Assembly (NCBI RefSeq): GCF_036365525.1
Contig: NC_090421.1
Coordinates: 3,414,725-3,478,724, forward strand
DNA length: 64,000 nt
Reading direction: 5' to 3'
From: Heterodontus francisci
Lineage: Eukaryota
Of this stretch, positions 4,705 through 49,641 are shown one piece after another. Below the pieces are notes generated by a model that worked only from the letters and a program-made list of their open reading frames with translations, had not been told where the DNA came from and did no database searches. Every line of letters begins with the position of its first letter. Position 1 is the stretch's first letter. The translations under genes and the position numbers were made by a program.

Positions 4705-5352
4705 TGTGTCCTCAGTATCTTGCTCTATGGCAGTGAGGCCTGGACAATGTATGTCAGCCAAGAGCGACGTCTCAACTCATTCCATCTTCGTTGCCTCCGA
4801 AGAATCCTTGGCATCAGGTGGCAGGACCGTATTTCCAACGCAGAAGTCCTCGAGGCGGCCAACATCCCCAGCATGTACGCCCTACTGAGCCAGTGGCGCT
4901 TGAGATGGCTTGGCATATGGGCCGCATGGAAAGTGGCAGGATCCCCAAGAACGCATTGTACAGCGAGCCCGTCACTGGTATCAGACCCACCGGCCGTCCA
5001 TGTCTCCGCTTTAAAGACGTCTGCAAACGTGACATGAAGTCCTGTGACATTGATCACAAGTCGTGGGAGTCAGTTGCCAATGATCACCAGAGCTGGTAGA
5101 CAGCCATAAAGGCGGGGCTAAAGAGTGGTGAGTCGAAGAGACTTAGCAGTTGGCAGGAAAAAGACAGAAGCACAAGGAGAGAGCCAACTGTGTAACAGCC
5201 CCGACAACCAATTTTATCTGCAGCACCTGTGGAAGAGTCTGTCACTCTAGAATTGGCCTTTATAGCCACTCCAGGCGCTGCTGCACGAACCACTGACCAC
5301 CTGCAGGCGCTTACCCATTGTCTCTCGAGACAAGGAGGCCAAAGAAGAAGAA
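4705..5352 (+). mobile_element. RTE-clade LINE 3' fragment
   Basis: ORF pieces LLYGSEAWT...FHLRCLRRILGIRWQDRISNAEVL and GRPCLRFKDVCKRD; closely matches 33640-34284; ends TTGTCTCTCGAGACAAGGAGGCCAAA(GAA)n. Confidence 0.9.
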
Positions 5353-9066: not shown

Positions 9067-10768
9067 TGAGAACCTACATAAACAGCAAGTTTAATGGACC
9101 TAATGGGTTTTCTATGTTTCTAGTGCTGGATAATATACAGAGGTCATATGACTAAGCATTAATGATGCATTTTAGAAAAAAAACACTGAATCCAGCCACC
9201 CTGATGTGTTTTTTTTGTTTTATTTTTCCTGAAACCACCATGTGTTCTGTTTATGCAAAGTAACTATTGTGCTATGAGACTAGGAGTAGTTTCTTCTTTT
9301 GAAGTTAAACACTTCTGTCAAGAAAACACTATATGCCAAATGAGAAATACTAATTCATCGGTTGGAAACTTACATAAAATTTTTAATGGAAAAAAAATCC
9401 TACAGTTCACTTTTTAAAAAACTGGCAGCCAAGATGGCCACCGCAATTTGCGTCTGAAACACCTTTGCACATTCCAAGGCCCAACTGGAGTCAGAAGCCT
9501 AACAAGAAGCTCAGCCAGGACAATGTTTTGGCTAACTGAGTAGACTATCCAGATCATCCTCATTAGCAGGACATTCAAAGCCATCTTGAGGCATTCATGA
9601 ATGGAGATGTCCCTCCAGAGGGTAAACACTGACAATACCACCTGAGAGAGGTTTTGGTTTTTAAACTTTGGACCTTATTAAAAACAAAGGGGATTGAGAG
9701 AACCATGTGACCGTCTCCTCAGGCTGTGAAAAACTGGGAGTTTTGTTGCACACAAAGAGACAAGCAGTAACTGAAACTGAGCAGCAGCAGAAGGTTGTGT
9801 GCTTCCCTTTCTCTCTCCCTCTCTCTCCAGAAAACATCAAGTTTGAAAACCATCTGCAACTGTGGACCCTCCAAGCCTACAGAATGCTACAGCCAGAGAC
9901 CAGGGGAAGAGGGCCAATTACAATTCTGCCTCCAAGAAAACCCTGAGCAAAGCGGGCCAACCACAAAGTGCACTTTGACCAGACAAGACTTCAAGAATAC
10001 AACTCCAGCCTGAAGACCACCGAATCATCCATCCTCGGACTGTGTATTTAACTTTTATTTAGATTAGATTAGAGATACAGCACTGAAACAGGCCCTTCGG
10101 CCCACCGAGTCTGTGCCGAACATCAACCACCCATTTATACTAATCCTACACTAATCCCATATTCCTACCAAACATCCCCACCTGTCCCTATATTTCCCTA
10201 CCACCTACCTACACTAGTGACAATTTATAATGGCCAATTTACCTATCAACCTGCAAGTCTTTTGGCTTGTGGGAGGAAACCGGAGCACCCGGAGAAAACC
10301 CACGCAGACACAGGGAGAACTTGCAAACTCCACACAGGCAGTACCCGGAATCGAACCCGGGTCCCTGGAGCTGTGAGGCTGCGGTGCTAACCACTGCGCC
10401 ACTGTGCCGCCCTTATTTATTAAGGACTTTAATCCAACCAAAAAACCTCCTTTCCACTTTGTCATCTATTTGTGTGCATGTGATCCTCGTGTGAATGTGT
10501 GCGTGAAAGTGTAGCTTTTTTTTTATTATTTTAGATCGGGTTTTGCTTGTTGAGTATAATAAACTTACCGCTTTCTTGTTTAAACTCAAGAAAACCTGTC
10601 CGATTGTTTTTTTCACGATCACATTAAAGGTAAAAGGTAAAGCACTCACTGAGGTGGTAAGCACCACCACTGTTTAAAAAAGGAATAAATCTTGTTGCGG
10701 TCAAATAAGAGGAAGGGCAAGAGAGGCGACTGTGACCCTCCCCCCCACCTCCTCACCTGGCCGTAACA
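9067..10768 (+). mobile_element. Possible solo LTR (Gypsy-like), interrupted by an HE1 SINE
   Basis: Ends ...GGCCGTAACA and contains AATAAA ~200 nt before the end; possible TG start with ACTT on both sides. Left boundary uncertain. Confidence 0.35.
10059..10412 (-). mobile_element. HE1-type V-SINE
   Basis: tRNA-like head with A box TGGCGCAGTGG and B box GGTTCGATTCC, V-domain GGGTTTTCTCCGGGTGCTCCGGTTTCCTCCCACA, CR1-like tail and (TCTAA)n; five near-identical copies in the window. Confidence 0.9.
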
Positions 10769-15880: not shown

Positions 15881-16062
15881 GCTCACATGGGAAACTTGGC
15901 AATTTTCTGACTGATTTCAAATATTCAAAATCAGTATTTATACTGATATTTATTGTGCATTTGTGCCCATTTAACCCAACAAGAATTTTTAGCGAAAGGT
16001 ACAATAATCTGGCCAGGTTGGCATCAGCCACTCTTTTAAAAAAAAAACAGATATTCATCTAC

Positions 16063-17989
16063 CTAAGGGTTTGGATATGACGGAAGGTAATGTACTTTCT
16101 GAACAGGTAAGCCAGTCGAAGCTGAACTGTCGTTAAGGTTTGATGAATAAGGTGTGTTGCTATGGCATGGAGTCGTCTGGAAATGATACCATTATACACG
16201 GCTTGGTCCAAAGTTTTATAATTTGTTCTTAGGTATGTCACATTTACAATATATGACCCATCAACAATTTTTTCAGCATTAGCAGCCTGGAAGACCTTTC
16301 CCCTGGGTTGTATTGTTCCTGCTATTGTCTCTGTTACCATATTGGGCAGAGGAATGCCTTCCTTCTTACAATGCTCTGCCTGTAGTTTCATTTCCTTTCC
16401 TTTAAGCCCAAAGACACTGTTGATAGAGTATAGATTCTTGGTTGCCTCTCGAATCCTGATTAACTGATCCATTCCAGCCCGAGAGGACATTTTCTCAAGC
16501 GTCATAATTGTGTCTAACGCTTCCAGGGTATTTTCATGGAAGCAGGTTTCTTGCTGGGACATGCTTTTGTCCTGTTCGACCTCTTCAATGAAATACTGAA
16601 TTTGGGCACTTAATTCATCAAGTGCAACCTCTTGAATAATACTGAATCTGGAAATTTCTTCAAGAAGATCAGCAAAAGTCATAAATTCAGGTTGTTTCTC
16701 CTTCAATTTCTCCACTAAGCTTTCCTTTGATGGCTTTAATACTTGGATAGGTTGCTCACTAACCTCTTGTGTGAAGTTCTGCATTGGCTTGGCAAAGATT
16801 TCTTTGATTGTTTTCTCAATCACTCCATAAAGATTTTTTAATTCAGTAGACTTGAGAAGAGCTTGGACCTTACAGATGTCATCAGGCGAAAGTTCTTTTC
16901 CGCTGCTCAGTCCGTGATCCAGTGAATACAAAACAGCAGTCTGAAAATCTGTGAGCAAGTCCACAGCCATCTGCTTAGCCGTGGTCTTTAAAGTTTCTTC
17001 TTTCCAAGCTGATGCCCTCCGTTTCTTTCCTGCATTGCGGTTAGATTTATGCATTTTATTCTTCACTGCTTCAGTAAGAACTATCTCCAATTTGGGCTGA
17101 GTTGTGGGAGTGATCCTTCCATTAGACACTTCTGTGGGAATATTTTCTCCTTCAGGTTTTCTAAAGGGAATGTTTTCTTCCTTGGATACTTCTAGGATAG
17201 TCCTTTGTTCCTCAGGTTCTCCAAAGGGAATATTTACTTCCTTGGATTTTACAAGGACAGTCCTTTGTTTGTCAGGGCTATCATGCCCATCAACAAGAAT
17301 ATTTTTGTGCTCCTGACTGAGGAGATATTGCCCCCTGCGATTTTCTACAGGAATGATTTTGTCCTTTGATTTTTTCACAAGCGCTATACTTTCATTTATT
17401 TTGGGCGCCTGCTTTGTTTTTACTTGCAGATCATTAGATAGAGAGAAATTTTCAGAAGTGATTTTCTCGTGAGGGAGTGTTTTGCTAACGTTTTGTAGCT
17501 GCTCAGCTTTGGACCTCAAAAGTTTAATGGTGTTTTCCAAATTGTAGTTCGCGTTACATGCTTCCCTGTAATTACGTTCCGCTAATTCAGCTCGCGTTTT
17601 AAGTGCACTGCTATGTTGTCGAAGATGTTTTAGCTCATTCACCAGATTACCTTCAGCACCCTGGGAGCCAAGTGAGTCTGACTTTCTCAATTCATTTTCC
17701 ACCTCAAAATATTCCTGTGACCGAATGTGAAATGCCTTGTGAAGATTCGCTATGAATTTCCTGATGTATCTGAAGGCAATTGTCTGGGCTTTCTTGCAAG
17801 GAGGAGATTTTGTGATGTCTGTTAGTATCATATCAATCTCTCCCACTGCTGCGTCCAACTGTTTCGCAATGTTCGGTTCCACCATTTTCACTGTACTCAT
17901 TGGCTGCATATCCAGAAGATGCATGAGTGTTTTGGGATCCATCTTTTTCTCCCTCCACCATTTCAAAATGGTATCTTGACCACCAGGTT
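16063..17989 (-). CDS. FAM186A: FAM186A/B-like, large coding exon 4
   Basis: 1927-nt open exon, ATTCTTTGCAG|AA...CTTAG|GTAGAT, phase 1/2. AFRYIRKFIANLHKAF resembles FAM186 AIRYMATVVENLNKAL; RLAYLFRKYITFRHIQTLR resembles RLQYLCHKYIFYRRLQSLR. Confidence 0.9.
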
Positions 17990-18171
17990 CTGCAAAGAAT
18001 CACAGTGTAAGACCAATCATTGCGTACTTTATTATGTATTATGCTCCAAAACGTTTTGACAGTGTTTAAGGTGCTATGTCAATACAAGTCTTTTTCTTTC
18101 AATCAAAATTAAATATTGTGTAATTTCATGTGTACTCTGATTTTAACATTGTACAATACAACTCTCTAAAT

Positions 18172-21014: not shown

Positions 21015-21230
21015 CTACAAAATACATGGATAACAGAAAATTACATTTGTAAATTACATTGAAATAGCCTGTGTGGCCTTACATAAAGCTGCTCCTGTTT
21101 TAGAAGCACATATTACTCATTGCACCTTTTTTGCTAATCAAGGTAAATACATTAGTGCTAGTAAGTGAAACACTTTCCATTTTGAGCACAGAGCATTGTC
21201 AGCATTGAACAAGTCAGGAATAACATAGTT

Positions 21231-21420
21231 TGATAGAGAGTGAAGCTCCCTGTACACTGTCCCATCAAACACTCCCAGGCCAGGTACAGCACGGATTAGA
21301 TACAGAGTAAAGCTCCCTCTACACTGTCCATTCAAACACTCCCAGGGCAGGTACAGCACGGATTAGATACAGAGTAAAGCTCCCTCTACACTGTCCCATC
21401 AAACACTCCCAGGGCAGGTA
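21231..21420 (+). repeat. ~67-bp tandem repeat, left block (~2.8 units)
   Basis: Unit GATTAGATACAGAGTAAAGCTCCCTCTACACTGTCCCATCAAACACTCCCAGGGCAGGTACAGCACG; unit starts at 21294 and 21361. Confidence 0.95.
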
Positions 21421-22958
21421 CGCACCTCCTCTATCTGGGAGTCCTCCTTAGCCCCGCTGAGGAAGCCTGGCCAACAAACTGGCAGGTGTTGGAGGCAAAA
21501 GTCACCACTCAGCTGGGGCGCTGGACAGGACTGCTTTCCTACAGGGGCCGAGTGCTGGTCGTAAACGAACTGGTGACCTCAATGCTGTGGTCATTTTGGC
21601 CCCACCCCCTGCATTTTCCGCCAAGATCCAGAAGAAGCATGTCGATTTCTTCTGGGGCAAGAGGAAACACTGGGTCTCTGCAGCGGTCCTGAGTCTCCCG
21701 ATCGAGGAGGGCAGCCAGTCGCTAGTGTGCGTCCACGCCCAAACTGTGACTCTCTGCCTTCGGACCCTGCACAGATACCTGTACATTGAGAGTCCTCCCA
21801 GATGGTGTGCGCTAGCTACATATTTGTTCCGCCGGGGCACTGCCTTCAAGACGACACGCAGCTCCCGGCGGAGAATGTTAGCCGCGCCTCTCTGAGGGAG
21901 TTGCCTGTCCGTTACCGGAGTCTAGAACATGGTCGCCTCTAGTCAGGGCACTCCCCCGCTGGCGGAGGAGAGCGCCTCAGCTGTCCGGGCAGCTGGCTCT
22001 GGGGACAAACCGACGGGCAGAGGAGTAGCCAAACCCCCCGGGACGCCCCTCACTGCGGGTGACGAAGGGGCTAACCGAGCTGACCCCCGCTCGGATGGAA
22101 CTGCTCATCGGACCCAGGCCCCGAAACCCTCCTTGGGAGCCGGTCCCGCACAACCCAAGCCGCCTCTCGCAAATGCCTTCCATGCAATTCCACACGGCGT
22201 GAAGGGGTTTCCTGTACAGGCTGCTCCTACACACTCTTCACTTTCTCGCCCTCGTCTGCCGCCCGGACACGCCGTGGCGGTTCGTGTTGACATCTGGTGG
22301 CGAGGGGAAACCCTGGTGGAGGTCTCTGTACGTGGGAGTCCTCCCCCTTTACATCTGAGACCTGGGATGGAGGGTGCTGCACAGGGCAGTCCTGTGCAAT
22401 AGACTGTTAAGTAGGTTCACGGACTCCCAGGCCGCCTGTAATTTCTGCGGCTTGGGCGAGTCCGTGTTCCATGTTTATATGGAGTGTGCGAGGTTGCTTT
22501 GAGTATTTAAAGGGGCTGCTCAAGTTTTCGCTGCACTTCAGCCCCACACTCCTGATCCTTGAGCACCCGGTCGGAGGAGGGTGGGCCGGGAGGAGGATCT
22601 CCTCGTTGGTCTGCTTCTGGGCCTGGCCAAGGTGGCAGTTCACAGGTCCAGACTGTGGGCCATCGGGGGGTCCATCCGCCCTGATTGCCTGCCCCTCTTC
22701 TGAGGTCACATTCGCGGGTGTCCCTGGAGAAGGAGCATGCGGTGTCCGCTTGAGGCCTTCTGTGATTGGTGGGCACCACAGGGTCTGGAGTGCATCATCA
22801 ATGCCGAGAATGGCATTTTAATTTGAGTTTTGTTTCATTAATTCACTTTTAATAAAATTATTTATTTAAAATATATATAAAGGGGGCCTGGGGAATAAAG
22901 GCCCCCTCGACAAATAATATATAAAAGGGGCCTGGGGTATAAAGGCTTCCAAAAAAAA
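21421..22958 (+). mobile_element. Tx1-clade LINE, 5'-truncated copy
   Basis: Homologous to 28961-30490; zinc-binding C-terminus (CNFCGLGESVFHVYMEC), 3' hairpin and poly(A). Confidence 0.9.
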
Positions 22959-23134
22959 CCTCCCTCTACACTGTCCCCATCAAACACTCCCAGGACAGGA
23001 ACAGCACTGGGGTTAGATACAGAGTAAAGCTCCCTCTACAAAAAAAAAGAAAATAAAATGGGATTAGATACAGAGTAAAGCTCCCTCTACACTGTCCCCA
23101 TCAAACACTCCCAGGACAGATACAGCACAGGGTT
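22959..23134 (+). repeat. ~67-bp tandem repeat, middle block with an A-rich insert at 23041-23058
   Basis: Same unit as 21231-21420. Confidence 0.92.
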
Positions 23135-23140
23135 GGCTGC

Positions 23141-23610
<470 letters not shown>

Positions 23611-24206
23611 CAGGGTTGGCTGCTGGCTAAGTGGAGTGTTGACTGCTGATTGCAGCAACGAGCCTCAGCTGAGAGTGCTGGTGGCAGTTGGAGGTTGCAG
23701 AGGTGGAGAGAGGAGCTACACTGAGCAAGGGAGAGCAGTTACAAACAAGCAGAGGAAAACTCCAACAACAATCGCCTTTAAAAGAGAAGAAAGCGACATT
23801 CTTTTTTTGTTGGAAACAAGGCTTTGTCTGGAGGTGGGTGCTGAACACCAGTAATTTACTTTGGACAGTTGGGGGAGGAACAACAAGGGGTGGGGCTGCC
23901 AATTCAACAGGAATCTGTGCTGCTGCAAAAGCACACAGGGAAGCTCCCTCCCCACCCCAATTGCCAAGCCTGGGTCAGCTGAAGCTGCCCAGCTAAACAG
24001 ACGGAAGGGGATAGATAGTGCCTGGGCAGCTTCAGCTGACCCAGGTGAAGACGACTCCCCCAACCAGAAGACCGGAAGACCAAGTTCAAAGACTGTTTTA
24101 AGTGTACTGTGAGCACCACCTCCAGAAAGCAAGTCATCCCTTTCAGCCTGCCTTTGCCTCTCCTCTATTACCTCAGCCTCTCCACTAACCTGTTGTTTGT
24201 TTGCTT

Positions 24207-24556
24207 GTTTAGTTTAGAGATACAGCACTGAAACAGGCCCTTCGGCCCACCGAGTCTGTGCCGACCATCAGCCACCCATTTATACTAATCCTACACTAAT
24301 CCCATATTCCTACCACATCCCCACCTGTCCCTATATATTTCCCTACCACCTACCTATACTAGGGGCAATTTATAATGGCCAATTAACCTATCAACCTGCA
24401 AGTCTTTGGCATGTGGGAGGAAACCGGAGCACCCGGAGGAAACCCACGCAGACACAGGGAGAACTTGCAAACTCCGCACAGGCAGTACCCAGAATCGAAC
24501 CCGGGTCCCTGGAGCTGTGAGGCTGCGGTGCTAACCACTGCGCCACTGTGCCGCCC
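24207..24556 (-). mobile_element. HE1-type V-SINE inside the Tx1 5'UTR
   Basis: Near-identical to 10059-10412; (TAAAC)n tail. Confidence 0.9.
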
Positions 24557-24647
24557 ATATGTCTTTAATACATATTCAATTTTTTCTGTGAATCTCTGAT
24601 ATTTGGTGTGCGAGCCCACAATTTGGGGTGGGTTTAGCTCTTAGACC

Positions 24648-26691
24648 ATGGCAAGCCCCTCATCACCGGTGGCGGGGCCCTCTACTACCTATGCAGCTGC
24701 AGTTTCTGTGGCTGCCCACGTGGCCCCGTCACCCTTTAAATTAATAACATCCAGCCATGGGGTGAAGAGCTATCCCCACCCCAACATGTCTATTGAGGCC
24801 TGCGTAAAGGCAATGGCCGAGGTTGTCGGCCCCTCGGCCATTGTTGCGGCCTCAAAGATGTATGGGAAGGCTGTGTTCTTTTTGAGGACCGAGCGGGCGG
24901 TGTCCCTGGCCCTGAGTAAGGGGCTCGCTGTGGGGGGGACCTTCCTGCCAGTGGACCCTCTGGGGGCCACTGCGCATCGGATAATGTTGTCCAACGTCCC
25001 ACCCTTCATTCCCAGTGAGCTCCTCCTCCCCCACCTGCACCATCTGGGGGAGGTGAGGTCGGGGATCACCCCAGTCTGGCTTGGTCTTCGGGAGCACAGC
25101 CTCCAACATGTCTACTCCTTCCGCCGCCAGTTATTTATGCAGCTGGCGCGGGAGGAGGACACGGAGGGCCAAGTTTATGTGGAGTTCCAGGGGACGGCCT
25201 ACCACGTCTTCTGGACCTCGGATGGGGCGCGGTGCCACGTCTGCAAGGGGGTGGGGCATGTTCGTAAGAACTGCCCCAACCTCCCGGCCGCCAGCTCCAC
25301 CTCAGCGGCCCAGAGTGGTTCCACAGCACCTCCTCCCACTCCCCCCACACATCCAATAGACGCCGCTCAGTCAGTTCCGGAGGCTGTGGTTTTCACAGCC
25401 TCCGGCGGGGAGGGGAGCGTCCGTCCGAGCAGAAGGAAGACGCGGGGAAAAAAGAAACATCATGAGGCGCGTCCCCTGGACACTTTGACTCAACCCGAGC
25501 CTGAGCTCAGCCCAAAGCCCATTCCCATGGAATCCACCTGTCCCAGGGCTGGGCTCAGGCCCAGGGTGACTAAAAAGGAAAAAAAGGGTGCGGAGGTGGA
25601 GGTCTCTGATGACATGGAGGTCTCTGAGCCTCCGCGCCCTAGTGGGAAAAAGAGGAGCAGGCACCCCTCCACAGAAATAACACAGGGCCCTGAGGTGCTG
25701 GGCCCATCTGTTGGGGGGGAAGCTGTCTCCTGTTTCGGATCCTCAGGTTCCCCCTACCACCACCACCAAGGCTGCAAAGTCCGGGCAGGAGCTCCCTATT
25801 CCTCAGGATGGAGGGGAGGGGAAGGCCCCGGTACATGAGGCCCCTCCTGAAGGAGTAAGTGGGGCCCTGCTTGTGGTGGGGGAGCCTGGGGACGCCACCC
25901 ATTCTGCCACTGCTACTGGGTCGGGTGCCCTGAATGAAGGGGAGGGCGACGCCCCAGAGGGTCAGCCCTCCCAGCCGGAGTCCACCACCAACCAGGAGAC
26001 ACCTGACCTGGTGAAAACTGAGAATGCTGCCCCATCTGCTGGACCTGTGGGTGCTGGCAGAGCGGGAGATGGCCTCCTCTCTCCGCCTCGGGTCTCGGCT
26101 CCGGCTGGATTTCCGGAGTCGGGATCTTATGTCTCCCCTGGACCACTCGTTGGCCTGGGGACGGAGGTGGAGGGGGGTCCTGGGCTGCTGGCGCCCACAG
26201 GCTCCAGTTTTACAATAGAACCCAGAGACGACTCCTCCGCCATCGATCCTGGGGGTGGGATCGTGACGGGGGCGGGACCAGCTGGTGCGGCCGGGACGTT
26301 CGCCCCACAGTGTGTGGTGGATGTGTCGGCTGCTGGCGGTGACGACCCGGAGGAGGATGGGGATTCGGTGTGGGGCACGGAGGATGATCTTGATTCCATC
26401 GCCAGTGAGGTGGTGGAGTCCCTCGTGCCTCCCACCGAATCTCCTCTCACCCCCACGGCGGAACTCCGGGATTTCCTCGCGGTTTGCAGGGGCTGCCGCA
26501 ATAAAGTTCAGCTGGCCCTCGACCGCTGGTCGAATCTGGCGCTGATCATCCAGTCCGTCCGTGCTGCCCTGAAGATAACGGGCAAGCGCGCGGGCGTGAA
26601 ACTGGTTGAGAGGCGCCGGTTTAATGTGTTCCTCAATGGGTTGCTGGGGGAGTGGAAGGCCAGGTGCACTTCCACTCCCTCCTCACAGTGA
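24648..26691 (+). pseudogene. Tx1 ORF1 (gag-like), frameshifted near 25.7 kb
   Basis: IVAASKMYGKAVFFL, LSNVPPFIP, SFRRQLFM and CHVCKGVGHVRKNC knuckle; continues in the 25711..26691 frame. Confidence 0.85.
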
Positions 26692-26723
26692 GCTGTTGGT
26701 GACGGGTTTTAAGTACCTTTGAC

Positions 26724-29700
26724 ATGAAGATAACCATAGCCAGCCTCAACATCAACGGCAGCAGGGGGTCTCACCCTAGATTTCACAATCTCTCAGTCCT
26801 TAGGGAAGGGAGATATGCGGTGAGCTTTCTGCAGGAAACCCACACCGTTCCGGGAGACGAAGCCACCTTGCTCCTGGAGTGGCAGGGTGGGGTCGACATG
26901 AGCCACCTCACCCGTATTTCTAGTGGGGTGGCTATCTTGTTGGCCCCGACTTTTCAGCCGGAGATCTTGGGGGTCAAGGAGCTAGTGCCGGGCTGCTTGC
27001 TCCACCTCGCCGTTCGCCTGGGTAGCGTGCCGCTCCACTTTGAACATGTACGCGCCCAGGTCCGGCGCGTTGCAAGCGCGCTTCTTTGAAGAAGTGTCCG
27101 CTATCTCTCGAGCTCCATTCATAGCAGCGAGTGCATCATCCTCGGGGGGGATTTTAACTGTACCCTCGAGGTGGGGGATCGCTCCGGTCCTCAGCGCGGC
27201 CAAGCGTCGGTGGAGAGGTTGAGGGGACTGATCAGCTCCCTCAACTTGGTGGATGTCTGGCGGAATCTCCATCCCGACTCCAGCGCCTTCACGTGGAAGT
27301 CTGGAGGAGAAGGGTCTCGAATCGACCGCCTCTACTTTTCGCAGGTGTACGTCTCTCGCATCTTGGCGGCCTCCATGCGGCTGGTGCTGTGCTCGGACCA
27401 CCACCTGGTGTGAGCGGAGTCCGCATACTGGCACTTTAACAACCGGCTGCTGGAGGACGAGCGATTCCGGGACTCGTTCCGTCAATTCTGGGCCGACTGG
27501 AGAAGGAAGCAGGGGGCTTCCCCTCCTTGAGGCTATGGTGGGACGTGGGCAAGACTCACATCCGTGGCTTCTGTCAGGAGTACGCGAAGGGGTTGACCAA
27601 GATGCGGGAAGCCGAGATCGGGCGCCTTGAGAGGGAAGTGCTTGGCTTGGAGTCCCGCCTCGGTCATGCCATCACGGACCCGGCCCTGTGGCAGGCGTAC
27701 AAAGAGAAGAAGGGCGCGCTGAGGGACCTGCAGCTTATCGGGTCCCGAGGCGCGTACGTAAGATCGCAGATCAGATCCTGTAAAATTTGGACCGCGCCTC
27801 ACCCTTCTTCTACTCGCTGGAAAAATGGTGGGGGGTCCGTAAGCAGCTCATTGAGCTGCTGGCCGATGAAGGATCCTCCATCACGGATCCGGAGGGAACT
27901 GGCCTCCTGGTCCGTACTAATTACAGTGCGTTATTCTCTCCGGATCTGTCCAGCGAGGACGCACGCAGAGTTTTGTGGGAGGACCTGCCGTAGGTCAGCC
28001 CGGAGGGCGCCGAAGGATTGGAGGCTCCGCTCACGTTCGCGGAGCTGACCGGCGCCCTCCACCAGCTCTCAAGGGGTAAATCCCCGGGGCTGGACGGGCT
28101 GACTGTGGAGTTCCTCAGGACGTTCCTCAGGACATTCTGGGATGCCCTGGGGGACGATTACGAGTGGGTCCTGGGGGAAAGCCTGGCGACCGGTGAGATG
28201 CCCCTCTCGTGGGGCAGGGCGGTCATCATCCTGCTGCCGAAGAGGGGCAATCTCTGCCTGCTTAAAAACAGGCGTCCAGTCTCCCTCCTCAGCACGGATT
28301 ATAAGATCTTTGCCCGGGCTATGTCTACCCGCCTGGGCTCCGTGCTGGCCCACATGATCCACCCCGACCAGTCCTACACGGTCCCGGGCAGGTCCATCCA
28401 GGACAATATCCACCTGCTCTGGGACCTGATCCATCTTTCCCAGAGGACTGGTCAGTCGGTCGCCTTTCTCTCCCTCGATCTGGAGAAGGCGTTCGACAGG
28501 GTGGATCACGAATACCTTTTTGGGACTGTGCGCGCTTTCAGACTCGGGCTGCATTTTGTGGCCTGGGTCTGACTTTTATACGTTGCTGCAGAGTGTCTGG
28601 TCAAAGTTAACGGGTCCTTGATGGCACCCCTTCGCTTTGGAAGAGGAGTGCGTCAGGGATGCCCCATGTCTGGCCAATTGTATACGATCTGCGTGGAGCC
28701 ATTCCTGTGCCTGCTTCGCAGGAGGTTGATGGGATTGGCTCTGCGTGAGCCGGCTATGCAGGTCGTCCTCTCTGCTTGCACCGATGTGCTCCTCGCGGTC
28801 ACAGATCCTGTTGACTTGCAGAGGATGCGCGACTGCCAGCAGACCTTTTCTGCCGTGTCGTCCGCGAGGATCAATTGGGAGAAATTTTCCGGTCTCCTGG
28901 TGGGTCAGTGGCGGGTGGACTCCCTGCCGGAGGAGTTGACACCTTTTGCGTGGAGCACCACGCACCTCCTCTATCTGGGAGTCCACCTTAGCCCCGCTGA
29001 GGAAGCCTGGCCAACAAACTGGCAGGAGTTGGAGGCGAAAGTTGCCACTCGGTGGGGTGCTGGACAGGACTGCTCAGAGTGCTTTCCTACAGGGGCCGAG
29101 CGCTGGTCATAAACCAACTGGTGGCTTGATGCTGTGGTACTGGTTGGTCACTTTGGCCCCGCCCCCTGCATTCGCCACCAAGATCCAGAGGAAACTCGTC
29201 GATTTCTTCTGGGGCAAGAGGAAATACTGGGTCTCTGCCGCGGTCCTGAGTCTCCCGATCGAGGCGGGCAGCCAGTCGTTAGTGTGCGTCCGCACCCAGG
29301 TTGCGACTCTCCGCCTTCGGACTCTGCAGAGATACCTGTATGTCGAGCGTCCTCCCAGTTGGTGTGCGCTGACGACGTATTTTTTCCGCCAGTATCACTG
29401 CCTTCAAGACGGCACGCAGCTCCCGGCGGAGACCGTTAGCCGCGCCTCTCTGAGGGAGTTCCCTGTCTTTTACCAGGATCTATTCCGAGTCTGGAACACG
29501 GTTGCCTCCAGTCAGGGCGCTCCCCCGCTGGCGGAGGAGAGTGCCGCGGCTGTCCAGGTGGCTGACTCTGGGGCCAGACTGGTGGGCGGAGGAGTAGTCG
29601 AAGCCCCCGGGATGCCCCTCACTGCGGGTGGTGAGGGGGCTCGGGAGAGCAGAGCGCTCCCGGCCAAGCTGACCCCCGCTTGGCCGGAACTGCTCATCGG

Positions 29701-30388
29701 ACCCAGTCGGTCCCGCACAACCCAAGCCACCTCTCGGAAATGCCCTCCGTGCCATTCCAATTGGCACGGAGGGGTTTCCTGTACAGGCTGCTCCTGCACA
29801 CTCTCCACATCCTCGCCCTTGTCAGCAGGCTGGACACGACCTGGCGGTCTGCGTTGCCATCTTGCGGCGAGGGGAAACCCCGATGGAGGTCTCTCTATGC
29901 GGGAGTCTTTCCCCTTTACATCAGGGACCTGGGGTGGATGGTGTTGCACAGGGCAGTCCCGTGCAATAGACTTTTAAGTAGGTTCACGGACTCCCAGACC
30001 GCCTGTACTTTCTACAGCCTGGACGAATCTGTGTTCCACGTATATATGGAGTGTGCAAGGTTGCAGCACCTCTTTGAGTATTTGAAGGGGCTGTGCCTCA
30101 AGTTTTGGCTGCACTTCAGTTCCACGCTCCTGATCTTTGGGCACCCGGTGCGGAGGGGCGTGGGTCAGGAGGAGGATCTCCTCATCGGTCTGCTCCTGGG
30201 CCTGGCCAAGGTGGCAATTCACCGTTCTCCCTGATTGCCTGCCCCTCTTCCGTGGTCATGTTCGCGCCCGGGTGTCCCTGGAGAAGGAGCATGCAGTGTC
30301 CGCCGGTACGCTTGAGGCCTTTCACGACCGGTGGGCACCGCAGGGACTGGAGTGCATTGTCGACGCTGAGAATGGCATTTTAATTTGA
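26724..30388 (+). pseudogene. Tx1 ORF2 (APE endonuclease + reverse transcriptase), multiple frameshifts and stops
   Basis: MKITIASLNING, FLQETH, SRIDR, SDH, KSPGLDG, RPVSLLSTDYKI, SLDLEKAFDRVDH, GVRQGCPMSGQLY, ESVFHVYMEC spread over shifted ORFs. Confidence 0.9.
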
Positions 30389-30493
30389 GTTTTTTGTTTA
30401 TTAAAATCATATAGTTATTTTAAAAAATATGTATATAAAGGGGGCCTGAGGAATAAAGGCCCCCTCGACATAAAATGTAAAAAAAAGAAAAAA

Positions 30494-30548
30494 GGGGTTA
30501 GATGTCGAGTAAAGCTCCCTCTACACTATCCCCCATCAAACACTCCCA
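30494..30548 (+). repeat. ~67-bp tandem repeat, right remnant
   Basis: GGGGTTAGATGTCGAGTAAAGCTCCCTCTACACTATCCCCCATCAAACACTCCCA directly after the Tx1 poly(A). Confidence 0.9.
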
Positions 30549-30890
30549 TTTCAGGGGCTGGGTCACATGATTTCAAATTATGACCAGGGCTACTGGTTTA
30601 CTGTGATTAAGTCAAATAATGTTTTATTACATGGGATTGCCGTATTTGTACTGCCTTTTTTGAGATCACATTCTGCAATTCCTTCCATTTCTCCTAGTCT
30701 CCTGGTTAATATTTATCCCTCAACCAACATTATCAAAACAGGTGATCTGATCATTTATTTCATTGTTGTTTGTGGGAGCTTGCTGTGCAAACTGGCTGCT
30801 TTCTTTCCTTCATGACAATAGTGACTACAATTCAAAAGTACTTCATTTGCTGTGAAGTACTTTGGGACATCCTGAGGTCTTATTTTCACT

Positions 30891-30998
30891 AAAATACAGT
30901 TCTGATGAAAGGTCACAGACCTGAAACGATAACTCTGCTTCTCTCTTCACAGATGCTGCCTGACCTGGTGAGTATTTCCAGCACTTTGTTTTTATTTT
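30891..30998 (+). mobile_element. Penelope-like terminal fragment with minimal hammerhead ribozyme motif
   Basis: AGTT-CTGATGA-A-AGGTC-ACA-GACCT-GAAA-CGAT-AACT; 11-bp TSD TTATTTTCACT (30880-30890 / 30999-31009). Confidence 0.7.
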
Positions 30999-31501
30999 TT
31001 ATTTTCACTGTTTGGGTGTTGCCTTGTTGGTTAGACTGTCACCTTGTGCTGTAAATAGTGACTCTGTTGAAGCACTCGAATTGAAACTGGATCTGGCCCA
31101 TATCCAGCAGAGAGCAAGGGAATTGTGATGGAAACTGATAAATGGTTGAATTAGATCCTGGTTGATGGGATGACCTGGAAACCCTCTTCTCTTGCCTACA
31201 TTCCTAATGGGACATGCAAATTATTGAATCCCTACTATTCTATGTTCACTACACTATCTATGTTCACATTTATAATAGAACCTGCCTATGTAAACATGCC
31301 AGTGTCATTACACCCTCCCACCAGCTGTAGCACTGAAGTGTCTTGCTTTTGCATGTCCAGCTCCTCAGCTTGTACTGAATAGAAAGTTCTAAGCTCCAAC
31401 CAACTCTACTTCTCTCCTTCTCAAATTGAGAGTTAGTTTAAAATTTCCCTCTCAATGTATAATGCCACTGGAGATCGACTAATTTATAATAAACCACATA
31501 C

Positions 31502-31712: not shown

Positions 31713-32740
31713 CTGTTGGCAAATGTTAAAAGATCAAAAGGAGGTAAGCTATTCAAGCAAATAGTTTTAAAAATTGCACCTTTTTTGGAAATATCGATTA
31801 CTTCTAAAGACACAAATCACTGCACTCAGCCTATCTACGTCCCTGCTATATAAAATGAAGAAAAAAATGTACATCAATAAAAAAATCTGCATTTATGTTT
31901 TTTCTTTCATGACCTCCGTATTGTAGATTGTTGCTACTAAGAAATAGGTTTGATTCCTCTAGTTTGTAGAGATTACTGAGTCTTTGTAAGGTTTAAAACA
32001 ATAACTCATTTATTACATTTCAGGAAGTATTTACACTTTCTCTTAAGCAGGTTTAACTCTGCTGACACGATGCTGTTTCTCCTTCTGAGGTCTCCACCAC
32101 ATGTGATCTCTGACATCATCACAGTGGGCGCTGTCACTCACTCTGTCCCAAACATTAACCCTTTCAGACCCTTATACTACACTCAGGATGTCCCAAAGTG
32201 CTTTACAGCGATTGAAATATTGTTGAAGTGTAGTTACTGTTGTAATATGAGAAAATGCTACAGCCAATTTGTGCTCAGCAAGATCCCACAAATAGCAATG
32301 AAATAAAGGACCAGATAATTTTATTTTAGTGATGTTGCTTGAGAGAAATAGTGGCAAGGACACCAGGGAGGAATCCCATTCAATCACCATCATCTCAGCT
32401 CTCCCCCATTACCAGGATCTCCTGATCAAAGCAGTAGCTCATTACTGTACTGAATGATACCAGAATTTTTTTTTTATTTCATTGAATCTTCGATGTCTCC
32501 CTGGCAACTTGTACCTTATAGCGCTGTCTGGCTCCAATGTTATCATCTATACATCCCACACTCAATGGCTTCTCACAGACAACTGTTAGGAGTGTGAAAT
32601 GTGAGAACTTTACAAATCATTTGCTAATCCTTTGTCCTCACCAAAACAAAAAAATTCCACCAGTAAGTTTGTGTTTTCCCCCGCCCCATGCATGTAATAT
32701 GACAGATCTTATTCAGTAGTTTATTCACACATTATACACT

Positions 32741-34284
32741 ATGCTCAGCATAGTGAGGAAGGTCTTCGCTCGAGTCGCTTTAAACAGGCTCCAGAAGCTG
32801 GCTGAGCGTGTCTACCCTGAGGCACAGTGTGGCTTTCGAGCAGAGAGATCCACCATTGATATGCTGTTCTCCCTTCGCCAGCTACAGGAGAAATGCTGTG
32901 AACAACAGATGCCCCTCTACATTGCTTTCATTGATCTCACCAAAGCCTTTGACCTCGTCAGCAGACGTGGTCCCTTCAAACTACTAGAAAAGATCGGATG
33001 TCCACCAAAGCTACTAAGTATCATCACCTCATTCCATGACAATGTGAAAGGCACGATTCAGCATAGCGGCGCATCATCAGACCCCTTTCCTATCCTGAGT
33101 GGCGTGAAACAGGACTGTGTTCTCGCACCTACACTGTTTGGGATCTTCTTCTCCCTGCTGCTCTCACATGCGTTCAAGTCTTCAAAAGAAGGAATTTTCC
33201 TCCACACAAGATCAGGTGGCAGGTTGTTCAACCTTGCCCGCCTAAGAGTGAAGTCCAAAGTACGGAAAGTCCTCATCAGGGAACTTCTCTTTGCTGACGA
33301 TGCTGCATTAACATCCCACACTGAAGAGTGCCTGCAGAGTCTCATCGACAGGTTTGCGGCTGCCTGCAACGAATGTGGCCTAACCATCAGCCTCAAGAAA
33401 ACGAACATCATGGGACAGGACGTCAGAAATGCTCCATCCATCAATATCGGCGACAACGCTCTGGAAATGGTTCAAGAGTTCACCTACCTAGGCTCACCTA
33501 TCACCAGTAACCTGTGTCTCGATGCAGAAATCAACAAGCGCATGGGAAAGGCTTCCACTGCTATGTCCAGACTGGCCAAGAGAGTGTGGGAAAATGGCAC
33601 ACTGACATGGAACACAAAAGTCCGAGTGTATCAAGCCTGTGTCCTCAGTACCTTGCTCTATGGCAGCGAGGCCTGGACAACGTATGTCAGCCAAAAGTGA
33701 CGTCTCAATTCATTCCATCTTCGCTGCCTCCGGAGAATCCTTGGCATCAGGTGGCAGGACCGCATCTCCAACACAAAAGTCCTCGAGGCGGCCAACATCC
33801 CCAGCATATACACCCTACTGAGCCAGCAACACTTGAGATGGCTTGGCCATGTGAGCCGCATGGAAGATGGCAGGATCCCCAAGGACACATTGTACAGCGA
33901 GCTCGTCACTGGTATCAGACCCACCGGCCGTCCATGTCTCCGCTTTAAAGACGTCTGCAAACGCGACTTGAAGTCCTGTGACATTGATCACAAGTCATGG
34001 GAGTCAGTTGCCAGTGATCGCCAGAGCTGGCGGGCAGCCATAAAGGCGGGGCTAAAGTGTGGCGAGTCGAAGAGACTTAGCAGTTGGCAGGAAAAAAGAC
34101 AGAGGCGCAAGGGGAGAGCCAACTGTGTAACAGCCCCGACAACCAATCTTATCTGCAGCACCTGTGGAAGAGCCTGTCATTCTAGAATTGTCCTTTATAG
34201 CCACTCCAGGCGCTGCTTCACAAACCACTGACCACCTCCAGGCGCATATCCATTGTCTCTCGAGACAAGGAGGCCAAAGAAGAT
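32741..34284 (+). mobile_element. RTE-clade LINE, 5'-truncated (RT and 3' end)
   Basis: QCGFRAERSTIDM, FIDLTKAFD, GVKQDCVLAPTLF, LFADD, FTYLGS; one internal stop at 33698-33700; 3' palindrome and GAA tail. Confidence 0.93.
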
Positions 34285-36900: not shown

Positions 36901-39047
36901 GTAGGGGAATGCATTTTTTTTGTTTGTGCATGATCATTGGTCCGTCACAACCAGGCTGGCAGAATACTGCTTTCTGTTTCATGGTTAGACTGGCTATAAA
37001 CAAGCCTTGACACCCTTTATGATGCGGTTTCCGGGATAGTCGCCGGTAAATCTTCGTCAGAGCCAGTGATCAGTTGATGAATCATGTCATGTTAAATACC
37101 ACCTCCCTCTTAATGCTCCTCACTTACCTTTTTGAGTGGTGTTTCCCTTTACTCACTAGTTGTGCAGATCAAATGTCAAAATCTAATTCTCCCACAGCTA
37201 CATGAAAGCAGGTCAGCTGCAATGTAGTGTGCGCATTTTTCTGGTGACACCTCGTTAAATGGTACGGTAAAACATTTGGCGAATAACACTATCCAATATT
37301 AAGTGTTTCTTTCTAAACTCTCTACGTGTCTCCACACATTATATATTTCTCGATACATTAGGAGTCCCTTTTTGTTCTGCCTTTATTGAAATCTAAAGCA
37401 ACCCCATTCTCGAATATAAACTTACCACCAAATGAACTATTCTTCTGCAAATCTCAAGGAGTCTTACCACACCGCCCCCCACCCCCTCAAACTCCTGATA
37501 CTGTAATTGTGAAATGTTAGTTGTGTGAATTAAGCTATTTTGGATCTGCTTGTTATATGCATCTCTAATGTATTTTAATGACTATAGAAAATGTTATGGT
37601 GTGTGCAGTATACACTTAAAAATGCATCCTTTTTTGACACTTTTAATTTCTATTCCGATCGTACCCACTACTATATAGTGATAAATATTATTTGTTATTC
37701 TAGCAAGGCTGTTGGTAAAAAGAATCCTGAGTTTTAATTGACTAAATTGTCACTAAACTGGATGGAAAACTTCAATATATCTGAGATTTTGCGCAGGCTA
37801 TCCTAACAAAGCTTGTTTATAATGAATTCCTGCCCAAGGGCAGCATACAGCTGTAACTCTGTTACTGGAGACAAAATGGACACAATATTAATCATAGATT
37901 CATCTTATAACACTGTAGTTTCTTAATCACCAAAGTGAAGGACTGTTGAGGAAGAACGCCATTTCAAGAAGTTGGAATGCATGGATTTCTGGGTCTCATG
38001 ATTTCAAAACATAGGACTAGGGCCACAGGGTTACAGTGTAAAATTAAGGAAGAAAATGTGGCTCTCAAAAGGGAATTGGATAAACATCTGAAGGGAAAAA
38101 TTTTGCAGGGAACGGGCAGGGGAGTGGAACTAGTTAAGTTCTTGCAGAGAACTGACATGGGCTCAACAGGCTGAATGGCCTCCTTCTGTGCCATTCTATG
38201 ATTCTATTCTATTATATGGGATTGCTGAACTGTTGCCAGCTTTTTCCTGGGGATCACATTCTGCAGCTCCTTCCATTTTTCCATGAAAACCAAAAACTTG
38301 TCCACAAAAGAGTTATTCTTCCCTTTTATCAAGGCTTATGAATAAATCAAATTCTGTTAATACATGAAACTCTAGGATTTTTATGATCCATCTTGTGGGG
38401 ATCGTGTTGTATGATACCATCCGTTTTCTTGAGAAACTGAAAACCAGTAGCCTTGCATGACGATCGTTCTGGCCATTGATAACATTTTATTCAGTAAGCT
38501 GCTGTGGATTGTCTTGGAACCCAGAAGGCTTTCCATCTTCCTGACTAAAAACCAAGTAAGTAAAAGGGAAGGTTACTTTGCCAGCTGTGGGAGCACCATT
38601 GCCACAAGGACTGCAGCAGTTCAAGAAGGTCCACTACCTTCTGGAGTAACTCATGAGGGGCAATAAATGCCAGCATTGCCCACATCCCAAGAACAAAAGC
38701 TGCTCGTAGGCATCTTGCTTTTCTGTTGCAAACTGGATTTGGCAGAGATGAGGGAGCAGGTTTCCCACTTGGCTAGATAAGATTGATACCTCACCTGCTA
38801 GATTGGTCCTTCTCCTAAAACTGACGATATGTTTTTTTCCAATGTGCTACAGCACCAAGAAGCTCTTCGCCTTGTAGAACAAGTAGACTTGTTCCTGGTA
38901 TTACAGTTCTGTGTTAATAAGTATAATCAGAAGGATTACGAGCTACAGCTCGTGATGTTGCACATCAACAACTGGCATTTATATAGTATCTTTAATGTAG
39001 GAAAATGTCCCAAAGTGCTTCACACGAATAGAAGTAGAAACGCAAAA

Positions 39048-39400
39048 TTTAGTTTAGTTTAGAGATACAGCACTGAAACAGGCCCTTTGGCCCACCGAGG
39101 CTGTGCCGACCATCAACCACCCATTTATACTAATCCTACACTAATCCCATATTCCTACCACATCCCCACCTGTCCCTCTATTTCCCTACCACCTACCTAT
39201 ACTAGGGGCAATTTATAATGGCCAATTTACCTACCAACCTGCAAGTCTTTTGGCTTGTGGGAGGAAACCGGAGCACCCGGAGAAAACCCACGCAGACACA
39301 GGGAGAACTTGCAAACTCCACACAGGCAGTACCCAGAATTGAACCCGGGTCGCTGGAGCTGTGAGGCTGCGGTGCTAACCACTGTGCCACTGTGCTGCCC
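39048..39400 (-). mobile_element. HE1-type V-SINE
   Basis: Near-identical to the other copies. Confidence 0.9.
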
Positions 39401-41939
39401 CTAAACACTAAACCAAAGAAGGATATTTTAGGAAGGGTGACTAAAAGTTTGGTCAGAGGTAAGTTGTAAGAAGGAGAGGTGCAGGGGTTTAGGGCCTAGA
39501 TGGCTGAAGGCACAGCCGCCAGTAGTCAAGTAAAGGGAGTGGAAGATGCACAAGGTTGGGTGAGTTTTAAGTTAGGCCTACCTATTGCTGAAATTACAGG
39601 GCTCCTCTGGGCCTATTCTCAGAAGGGTTCCTACAGCAGATGGGAAGCCTGCACAACAACAACTTGGATTTATATAGCACCTTTGACGTAGTAAAACGAC
39701 CTAAGGCACGTCACAGGAGACAAAATTTGACACCGAGACACACAAGGAGATATTCAGGCAGGTGACCAAAAACTTGGTCAATGAGGTAGGTTTTAAGGAG
39801 CATCTGAAAAGGAAGGGAGAGAAGTGGCGAGGCATCACATCAGTGTACATGGTGGTAACACTGGCAGTCAGGAGAAACCTGTTGCTCAAAGTTGCCTTAT
39901 CCAACTGCTGGTCAATGCAATGGAGAGACAAAAATCTTCAAACACTTGAATCAGGAATGTGATGTTATTCAGGTGAGACAGCAGCAGTATGTTTGGTGCC
40001 ACGTGGTGCTTTGGCACAGTAATAAAATGTGGGTGTATACTGAAAAATACTTGTTTGCCAATTTTGTGGGCCATGCTGCCACCGTAGCAATGCAGAGAAT
40101 AATCCTGGCACATCCTCAGAAGGAAGAATTAGAGATCCATTAGTACCATTTGTGCTCTGCAGCACGTCCTTCCTGTTGAGCTCAAGCTGTGTTGGGAAGA
40201 GGCAGCTTGACCACCTCTTAACAAAATAATAAATAAGGCACAATGCTATTCACATTGCTAACCAAGGCAAGTGGTACTGTATGTATTGGATTGAATGCAG
40301 ATAGAACATCTGAGTTCAGTCTTCAAACAGAGCTTGTAAATGAACCATTTTTGCAGCTTGCCACCTACCTGATTTAAGGGATCAATGCATTCTCAACAAC
40401 TTTGTCGACTTTAAAGAATGTATAGAATGTCATGATGGGGGTGGTGGGCTGGGGGGGAAGTAATTGCACTCTTTGTAGCCACTTGTTTTAACATACAAAG
40501 CATCTGGCTTGTCTGTCACCTGGGTTACACTGTATTCATACAGGAAATGAAATGTACAGGTTTCTTTTTACCCACTTTAGGCAGATGAGAAAAGGATTTT
40601 GCTGTTTCTCTCCTCAATCACATGGTTTATTTTGCATGCAAGACATTAACTGGCTGTTCAGCCTGCTGATTGTCATGAATGGTTGCATCCATTTGCTAAA
40701 GTCCACAGATTGTGTTGCAAGATGTATAAGCTTCAATAAGCACAAGCAAGTAACTGTTTAAATTCATGTGCTGTGCCAGGGATTATTCTTTCTCTTCCCT
40801 TCCCTTCCCCCACACAAGCTTTTGACCATTTAAATAGCTTCAAATTCTATTAATTTACAAAAGAAAACCAATCCTTATCCACTGCAACAGGTCAACATTT
40901 CACATAAACGGCATCAGGAACAACAGTCCAGGAAGCACTTGAAAATTATTCATGACCCTTGACCTACTAAATTAAGATTACTGAATAAAAACAAAGTGCG
41001 CCAATATAACCACCTGCTTGTCAGATTAAGGGGTCAGAACTTTCTAACATGTTGGGTGTTGTATTCTTGTCCCTTGAAGCTCGGATTTTTTTCTTCCAGC
41101 ATCGTTTGTTAAAATGACCAGCTTTTTAAGTTCCAAATTCAGCCACCACAGCAGATGATGACTGGCAGCCGGGGCCCACTGTCACACTAACTGGCTTTAT
41201 GGTTGGAGGATGTTGCTTGATAACCTGATAAGTTAGTGATTGAATAAGAGTTCGGCGCATACTAAAAATCAGGTGGTGCAAATCTGCATGCATTTTTTTG
41301 CTTAAAGACAAACTTGGGGAGATAACAAAGAATATAGTTGTAGCCCCCCACCAAAAAACAATTATGCGGCCTTGGACATGATCACCACCCGCAGCCCTCC
41401 TCCCATCTTTGATTTAAAAACTTGAAGCAAAATTGTACATCCCACCTCCTCCTGATCCATCAAGCCTGCCCCACACTAATGATGGCCAAAGCACCATGAC
41501 TAAACAATTCCTCCACTCTCCCTGCCACTCCCTGCCCAGAGCCATGTAATCCCCTGAGACGGGAGAACAACCCAATAATGAGAAAAAAGTGCTCTGGAAA
41601 ATTTCTCACCAACCCACATAGGTAACTGAAACCAGTCCATGAGATCACACAGCCCGCACTGGTTCTCCAAACGGTACCACACCTCATCAATAAGAACAAA
41701 CCAGCCCAATGCCATTTATGTAAAGAGACTGACTACTAAATTGGATCCAATATTTGAAACTCAAGTTTTGCCATCTTGAATAATGGACCAACTTAGGCTC
41801 TTGACTCATCCTTAATATTTAACTTAGCCAGAAACAACAAGTAAAGGAGCTGACAGTCAGCTTCTTAATGACCTATTCTTCTTTCAACGACCCAGCAATG
41901 GGCTCGAATGCAGCCTTGACCATGTGCCTTTAGCTTCCC

Positions 41940-48800: not shown

Positions 48801-49641
48801 TCTATCTCACGCTTGCTGTTGGGAGGCCTGTAGTACAGCCCCAACATTGTTACCGCACCCTTCCGATTTTTGAGTTCTGCCTGTATTGCCTCACTGCTCG
48901 AGTCCTCCATAGTGCCCTCCTTCAGCACAGCTGTGATATCCTCTTTGACCAGTACTGCAACTCCTCCACCCCTTTTACATCCCTCTCTATCCCGCCGGAA
49001 GCATCGATATCCTGGGATATTTAGTTGCCAATCATGCCCTTCCCTCAACCAAGTCTCAGTAATAGCAATAACATCATACTCCCAGGTACTAATCCAGGCC
49101 TTAAGTTCATCTGCCTTACCTACTACACTTCTTGCATTAAAACAAATGCACCTCAGACCACCAGTCCCTTTGCGTTCATTGTCTGCTCCCTGTCTACTCT
49201 TTCCCTTAGTCACGCTGACTTCATTATCTAGTTCCTTACAGGCTTTAGTTACTACCTCCTTACTGTCCACTGACCTCCTCATTTGGTTCCCATCCCCCTG
49301 CCACATTAGTTTAAACCCTCCCCAACAGCGTTAGCAAAAGCACCCCCAAGGACATTGGTTCCAGTCCGGCCCAGGTGTAGACCGTCCAATTTGTAATAGT
49401 CCCACCTCCCCCAGAACCGGTCCCAATGTCCCAAAAATCTGAACCCCTCCCTCCTGCACCATCTCTCAAGCCACGCATTCATCCTGACTATTCTTTCATT
49501 TTTACTCTGACTATCACGTGGCACTGGTAGCAATCCTGAGATTACTACCTCTAAGGTCCTACTTTTTAACTTGGCTCCTAACTCCCTAAATTCTGCTTGT
49601 AGGACCTCATCCTGTTTTTTACCTATATCATTGGTGCCTAT
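45896..49641 (-). mobile_element. CR1 LINE (HER1-like): ORF1 C-terminus, complete ORF2 and 3'UTR; disabled
   Basis: ORF1 SGNH-esterase motifs (GTND, DGLHL); ORF2 APE (IAITETWL, GDFN, SDH) and RT (DFSKAFD, GVPQGSMLGP, FADD); stop at 48404, SINE insertion at 48018-48368, frameshift near 46220. Confidence 0.95.
48018..48368 (-). mobile_element. HE1-type V-SINE inserted in CR1 ORF2
   Basis: Interrupts CCCACATAT^CAAATG with CATAT repeated on both sides. Confidence 0.92.

Follow-up and report, generated by a model that had tools for sequence, protein, structure and literature searches.

Why do several retrotransposed sequences, all in one orientation, lie together within a few hundred bases of a single short tandem repeat? 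The question is raised by a stretch of 64,000 nt from Heterodontus francisci (horn shark), a single locus that we call the window in its whole length, in which an array of a 67-bp repeat is broken up by two copies of a Tx1-clade long interspersed nuclear element (LINE), a tract of A residues and a processed retrocopy of the ribosomal-protein gene rps15a. An earlier note on this DNA had reported these four pieces, and all of them are present on the plus strand, at coordinates that were exact or a few bases off; we number them inserts 1 to 4 by position. We consider it probable that they mark a shark Tx1L-like, target-specific family for which the 67-bp tandem repeat is a fixed-site target. What is new here, and the most valuable detail of the locus, is a protein-coding retrocopy at a rebuilt insertion site, with a target site duplication (TSD) nested in the junction of an older Tx1 insertion. 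The parts of the array are as follows (ORF, open reading frame; UTR, untranslated region).

21229 to 21425, plus strand: left block of the 67-bp repeat, about 2.9 units, its last bases overlapping the microhomology of insert 1
21420 to 22912, plus strand: insert 1, a 5'-truncated Tx1 with the last third of ORF2, the 3' UTR and a hairpin with AATAAA in its loop
22913 to 22958, plus strand: a second, degenerate 3' hairpin and a short A-run, either a slippage duplication or the tip of another Tx1
22959 to 23040, plus strand: repeat segment of 82 bp, resumed about 20 nt downstream of the site and belonging either to the resident array or to a 3'-transduced flank
23040 to 23058, plus strand: insert 2, an A-tract ending at the target phase
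23059 to 23135, plus strand: repeat segment of 1.1 units, which runs up to the 5' junction that insert 4 had at first
23127 to 23140, plus strand: left TSD of the retrocopy, perfect 14 bp, made of 8-9 nt of repeat and the first bases of insert 4
23141 to 23609, plus strand: insert 3, the rps15a processed retrocopy, with an extra G, a pyrimidine-rich 5' end and poly(A)
23610 to 23623, plus strand: right TSD of the retrocopy, perfect 14 bp
23618 to 30493, plus strand: insert 4, a full-length inactivated Tx1 with a perfect 5-bp TSD (6 bp with one mismatch)
30494 to 30548, plus strand: right block of the 67-bp repeat, 0.8 unit

A retrocopy nested in an older insertion

Insert 3 holds an intact, intronless ORF of 130 aa (23171-23563), with ribosomal protein S15a as its best PDB matches (E 4e-80), an AATAAA signal at 23582, 12 nt before the tail, poly(A) and a TSD, i.e., the set of features by which a retrocopy is recognized; the parent gene normally has introns. 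Directly after the left TSD comes one G and then a pyrimidine run, as is typical of the start of capped ribosomal-protein mRNAs, and the 5' end of the retrocopy has the look of such a full-length message. Nine of the 130 positions of the ORF differ from the best PDB match, most of them conservatively, which may reflect either a diverged shark parent or some selection on the retrocopy.

The 14-bp TSD had been missed in the earlier note. It spans the junction between the repeat and the 5' end of the full-length Tx1 and includes the first 6 nt of insert 4, while a common 13-mer was found in 3 of 20,000 random pairs of 30-nt sequences. Because the duplication contains the first bases of insert 4, the retrocopy was inserted after insert 4, at a site that the TSD of insert 4 had rebuilt, and for this second insertion no more than 7 bases of repeat were left on the downstream side of the nick. 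CpG decay in the left copy would account for the single mismatch in the TSD of insert 4. A chimera of rps15a and Tx1 made by template switching was rejected, as it can neither place target bases between the two nor Tx1 bases upstream of rps15a.

A common phase of insertion

The tails at 23058, 23610 and 30493 stop short of one and the same TT in the repeat unit by 5, 5 and 4 nt, so that the claim of a shared unit position behind the poly(A) tails of inserts 2, 3 and 4 stands. Three random junctions fell within 1 nt of one phase with a simulated P of 0.0015 (about fourfold higher if the case is counted as three of four), and the repeat makes up 406 of ca. 55,084 pre-insertion bases (0.74%), for which two further chance landings have a probability of about 5e-5. 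Both Tx1 copies in the window (2/2) sit in the 67-bp repeat; blastn with both copies returned only each other, and tblastn of four Tx1 relatives against the masked window gave only matches of 22-30%, to other LINEs, in agreement with the earlier observation that the 64 kb hold no other Tx1. The repeat is not part of the termini of the element, as it borders both a host retrocopy and a Tx1 copy that lacks its 5' part, and comes after the poly(A). Unlike the L1 consensus TTTT/AA, the site contains no run of T (PMC1950540; citations here and below refer to the consulted portions of each source).

Insert 1 matches insert 4 from 28960 onwards (87% over 1427 ungapped columns, Kimura two-parameter distance 0.14) and has lost 5.3 kb at its 5' end. 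Its 5' junction is a microhomology of four bases common to the target and Tx1; the last of these bases falls right at the site, which puts the join 0-7 nt upstream. Its own 3' end is not at the site, the repeat resuming about 20 nt past it. The target deletion invoked earlier to explain this gap is one of two readings.

In the first of these, to which we would give an even chance, insert 1 arrived in one event together with 82 nt of donor repeat as a 3' transduction, and insert 2 is its true tail. The end of AGTAAA, a variant poly(A) signal, lies 11 nt from the A-tract, at CA, against 12 nt for the AATAAA of the retrocopy and for that of the first hairpin of insert 1, and 20 nt in insert 4; a GATT variant after the A-tract matches the units to the left of insert 1, and the change to the target is reduced to a few bases. 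The 82-nt piece and the unit to its right, however, have two variants in common that are absent from the left block, and the donor locus would still have had to acquire the odd junction. Under this transduction there would be three events, all in phase, and the donor copy would also have sat in a 67-bp repeat. The other reading, quite conceivable if somewhat short of even, has two events, in which insert 1 removed about 25 nt of the target and insert 2, a tail alone, was inserted independently with a TSD of 33 bp. The two copies of this TSD differ by one mismatch and both hold a T that the other units lack; a repeat of this kind, however, arises at every junction within a tandem array. Of the earlier description of four stacked insertions in one orientation, the orientation is therefore borne out and the count is doubtful, as insert 1 may have insert 2 as its tail.

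Two smaller features touch these ends. The second hairpin (22913-22958) carries changes that keep the pairing via G-U, and it may represent one more insertion, of the tip of a sister-subfamily element. The A-tails at 23040-23058 and 30478-30493 are each interrupted by one G behind 8-9 A, which may point to a templated tail or be due to chance.

A Tx1L-like element

The identity of the element can be read from insert 4, in which the following parts are found (RT, reverse transcriptase; SINE, short interspersed nuclear element).

24207 to 24559, minus strand: SINE-like interspersed repeat of about 350 bp inside the Tx1 5' UTR, 96% identical to four other window copies
24648 to 26691, plus strand: Tx1 ORF1 in two overlapping frames, with sturgeon and turtle relatives at 45-48% and a CCHC knuckle read by eye
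26724 to 30388, plus strand: Tx1 ORF2 with APE endonuclease, RT and zf-RVT

ORF1 had no Pfam match, and ORF2 matched Exo_endo_phos, RVT_1 and zf-RVT, in that order. With a 192-aa query, the Xenopus Tx1L ORF2 stood at 60% identity among the 120 listed of 610 protein matches, which were mostly from turtles, and by tblastn the shark ORF2 is collinear with residues 1-1292 of the 1308 of Tx1L, at 57% over 430 aa in the RT and 43% in the endonuclease. The 57% RT identity to Tx1L stands against 22-30% for the other LINEs of the window, and RT identity to nine named relatives is 54-68%. Two ORFs, a poly(A) tail, 5' truncation and a TSD, the traits of the Tx1 clade, are all present, and the membership in this clade that had been proposed earlier is supported by the collinear ORF2 and the 57% RT identity to Tx1L. 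An RT tree of 11 rows, with support for two of eight branches, assigned the element to no named Tx1 subgroup; it was built without an L1-proper outgroup, and the placement in the clade rests on identity.

Insert 4 is dead despite its full length: ORF2 falls into seven aligned segments with six frame changes and five stops, and the RT catalytic motif is broken. Its 5' UTR also holds a perfect 24-bp inverted repeat with a 29-nt loop (23969-24045), unusually intact for a decayed copy and the source of two weak, below-threshold microRNA-like Rfam matches. The SINE-like repeat in the same UTR is one of five in the window (10057-10416, 24207-24559, 39047-39403, 48017-48370 and 51266-51612), 92-99% identical and in one orientation, the pair at 10.06 and 48.02 kb being 99% identical; it is probably of the V-SINE/HE1 type, on the minus strand.

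Origin and age of the two Tx1 copies

Over 249 codons, with the frame set by Tx1L, synonymous changes make up 46.5 of the 107 differences between the copies (43%), against 27-33% under neutrality (p 0.0003-0.023 in six models). Because of this excess, inserts 1 and 4 must come from different source elements that diverged under selection, and insert 1 as a local duplicate of insert 4 was rejected on the same ground. The proposal of independent insertions is thus supported by the junctions as well as by the synonymous excess. The argument that they happened at different times since the copies are diverged fails, because CpG decay is symmetric between them (33 vs 27, p = 0.52); derived residues likewise number 13 vs 12 and 15 vs 8 with two outgroups, and the copies look similar in age. 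Dating the insertions by copy divergence was therefore rejected, and it is from the nested TSD, rather than from this divergence, that we know the site to have been used at two times.

Mechanism and competing explanations

From what is observed, namely the anatomy of the locus, the phase, the TSDs, the order of insert 4 before insert 3 and the clade, we infer a nick position, a mobilization in trans by this Tx1 family and a family-wide specificity, which could be joined as follows. Nicking by the APE endonuclease would always fall at one point on the bottom strand of the unit (in top-strand letters ...CAGCA/C/GGGGTT, to within 1 nt). Target-primed reverse transcription would start there from the poly(A), and this would fix both phase and orientation. 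A loosely placed second nick would yield the TSD of 5-6 bp of insert 4, that of 14 bp of the retrocopy and the microhomology join of insert 1. With each TSD the site would be rebuilt at the 5' junction, and later inserts would stack upstream of earlier ones: insert 4 would have come first, and the rebuilt site would then have received a full-length rps15a mRNA, reverse-transcribed in trans by the same machinery. Because the retrocopy used the rebuilt site at the insert 4 junction, 7 repeat bases or fewer on the downstream side would suffice for recognition. Insert 1, derived from a different source element, would have landed in another unit.

Several points limit this proposal or weigh against it. 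Three of the four tails are in phase, of which only one is directly a Tx1 tail; the 3' end of insert 1 is about 20 nt off-phase under either model of its arrival; and the P values are post hoc, for one locus picked for its striking look. The 3' hairpin is kept in both Tx1 copies (z -3.65), and such a conserved structure would argue against mRNA carriage, since in some LINEs a 3' hairpin marks stringent cis recognition (PMC3472496); it may sit uneasily with a passenger mRNA unless such events are rare. The endonuclease hairpin loop (27273-27341, in frame) has 7 residues, against 11 in Tx1L and the sturgeon and turtle relatives, which in one decayed copy may be either decay or a trait of the family. 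Repeat-derived peptides accompanied none of 134 named protein relatives (9 unnamed of 143 left out). Searches of microbial collections have no bearing on the matter: the Tx1 3' hairpin and the 67-bp repeat were found at no locus of the GTDB genomes, which were scanned for host contamination and lack shark genomes, and plasmid and phage collections, also without shark genomes and hence silent on specificity, had no match to the element or the repeat. The translated repeat yielded no usable match in the Atlas, which likewise lacks shark genomes.

A family that inserts widely and for which the array is merely one favoured site, through a short motif or as an accessible germline intron, would also account for a cluster. 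The on-target share of Tx1 passengers is known to range from 90% to 13% (SINEU-3 vs SINEU-2; PMC4494074), the TSD lengths vary here and one 3' junction is off-phase; yet phase and strand are fixed in three tails, and the other 55 kb, the rest of the FAM186-like host gene included, are without Tx1, so that we regard such a weak preference as unlikely. Still less probable is that the Tx1 copies are targeted and that another LINE, a shark L1, put the rps15a retrocopy there by chance. A 14-bp TSD and poly(A) do fit generic L1-type insertions with their 10-20 bp (PMC6895275), and cartilaginous fishes hold many retrocopies, 14,081 by one count (10.64898/2026.06.26.734816), whereas the nick used by the retrocopy lies 1-2 nt from the Tx1 site, without a T-run, and the rebuilt site amounts to a few bases in 64 kb.

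That the repeat and Tx1 moved or were duplicated together, either with the repeat at the ends of the element or with insert 1 as a local duplicate, could draw on the 82-bp segment after insert 1, which may be a transduced flank; even transduction, though, implies a donor copy in a 67-bp repeat. This joint movement must further contend with the 2.9 units on the 5' side of insert 1, which lacks 5.3 kb and is attached through microhomology, with a host retrocopy that has identical flanks, with sequence in each Tx1 copy that is absent from the other (13 and 5 gaps) and with the synonymous excess between them, and we hold it to be very improbable. Chance clustering or an assembly artefact, for which the post hoc selection of the window might speak, is barely credible next to the TSDs, the age-consistent decay, the nested SINE and the correct intron splice sites on both sides.

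With fixed-site targeting by a Tx1L-like family retained as the probable explanation, a bolder extension can be formulated, which we find rather unlikely in its full form: a shark Tx1 lineage with poly(A)-only recognition would deliver its own copies, 3'-transduced flank and full-length host mRNAs throughout the genome to a single position of a dispersed 67-bp minisatellite, so that a good part of the shark retrocopies would have a fixed address and the arrays would be dated insertion stacks.

Host intron and repeat array

21015 to 31501, minus strand: host intron of a FAM186-like gene, from protein mapping and splice ends, all inserts being antisense to the gene

The 646-aa frame at 16062-17999 on the minus strand is 100% identical to a H. 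francisci protein whose shark and ray relatives are named FAM186A/B-like. The FAM186-like protein maps to the minus strand with exons at about 31721-31502 and 21014-20821, and the intron between them begins with GT at 31501 and ends with AG at 21015. This single intron of 10.5 kb holds the whole structure, inserted sequence accounting for ca. 8.9 kb. A 60-bp repeat of about two copies (17116-17276) lies within a large coding exon of the same gene.

The 67-bp unit was delimited by TRF at 21232-21425 (2.9 copies, 92%), and the other pieces (22959-23040, 23059-23135 and 30494-30548) bring the repeat to its total of 406 bases; an 18-nt motif of the unit occurs seven times in the window, each time within the array (7/7), with 0.05 expected. 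No Rfam family matched the unit, and the whole window was without an Rfam match at gathering score; the two weak microRNA matches (E 0.35-0.46) both lie outside the 67-bp repeat. An RNA-gene origin of the unit was rejected as no Rfam family matched, and a folded structure was rejected against shuffles (z 0.52 and -0.52). By Rfam and TRF the unit is neither an RNA gene nor a microsatellite, unlike the Keno, Kibi, Koshi, tRNA, U5 and 5S types of target. Of the 128 inverted pairs in the intron, the 25 longest include no terminal inverted repeat that joins the array flanks, and no TSD was seen around the array, the longest word common to its ends being 5 nt; a DNA transposon around it, if old, could be eroded. 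The unit is probably common and dispersed in shark genomes. Of four A-rich tracts (13/15 A) on the plus strand of the window three lie within the array, and six T-rich tracts all lie elsewhere.

Two younger-looking LINEs, with clade labels assigned by eye, occur outside the array. One is CR1/L2-like (46177-49767, minus strand), with frames of 615 and 308 aa and a SINE at 48017-48370, and the other is RTE-like (32720-34283, plus strand), with a partial second copy at 4704-5348.

Relation to known Tx1 families

The Xenopus laevis Tx1L (ORF2 = YTX2_XENLA) resembles the shark element in its collinear APE, RT and zinc-finger ORF2, its 57% RT identity and a repeat as target; its site reportedly lies in an internal tandem repeat of the transposon Tx1D. 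Insertion of Tx1L at a fixed site in this DNA transposon is documented (PMC1950540, PMC6719617, PMC1919474), its endonuclease nicks almost only its own site in vitro, with the hairpin loop affecting specificity (PMC1950540), and is said to read about 10 bp (PMC1919474). The shark element differs in a 67-bp target around which neither terminal inverted repeat nor TSD was seen, in the endonuclease loop (7 vs 11 residues) and in a protein-coding retrocopy at the site. Its nearest named relative is a Tx1-like ORF2 piece in a gene model of the red stingray (Hemitrygon akajei), with 68-70% identity in the RT; the pairing of the two is not supported in the RT tree.

Among other Tx1 families, Keno targets U2 snRNA (small nuclear RNA) and Kibi and Koshi target microsatellites; these and the satellite-targeting families have the clade and a multicopy target in common with the shark element, whose 67-bp unit, in contrast, has no Rfam match and is not a microsatellite. 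Mariner, long terminal repeat and Harbinger elements as well as microsatellites are also targets (PMC4494074), and the legend of Fig. 3 of that paper adds satellites, U5 and 5S. In crocodilians, Tx1-Mar and SINEU form tandem insertions around a TSD, and a mobilization of SINEU in trans to the same site is proposed (PMC4494074). These parallel the shark locus in a dispersed-repeat target, in stacking around a TSD and in passengers that reach the same site in trans, although, compared by description only, the crocodilian passengers are snRNA-derived SINEs with Mariner as target and the shark passenger is a ribosomal-protein mRNA. The concept of repeat-targeting, tandemly stacking and passenger-carrying Tx1 families is thus not new, judging from the consulted parts of that paper (PMC4494074), in which a family counts as target-specific if one repeat flanks over 20% of its genomic copies, and in which sharks are not mentioned.

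For cartilaginous fishes, a preprint reporting the 14,081 retrocopies credits CR1 or Tx1 in non-mammals from abundance patterns, and the term 'target site' is absent from its main text (10.64898/2026.06.26.734816). Tx1 goes unmentioned in the consulted portions of two elasmobranch genome papers (10.1101/2025.06.08.657570, PMC10620051). Our literature search, which did not cover Repbase or Dfam and does not establish absence from print, returned no description of the 67-bp repeat or of a target-specific Tx1 in sharks.

The locus would add a shark family and a new target to the sequence-specific Tx1 elements, and the nested TSD offers a natural map of what the endonuclease needs, with 7 downstream repeat bases at most. 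Should it prove confined to this one locus, the case would be neat but unremarkable. The origin of processed pseudogenes in cartilaginous fishes has so far been argued from genome-wide correlation (10.64898/2026.06.26.734816); if other retrocopies end at the same phase, there would be a sequence-level test of which LINE makes them. The finding of such same-phase retrocopies would also point to a site-specific vertebrate LINE that accepts ordinary mRNA, which would be relevant to tools for targeted insertion.

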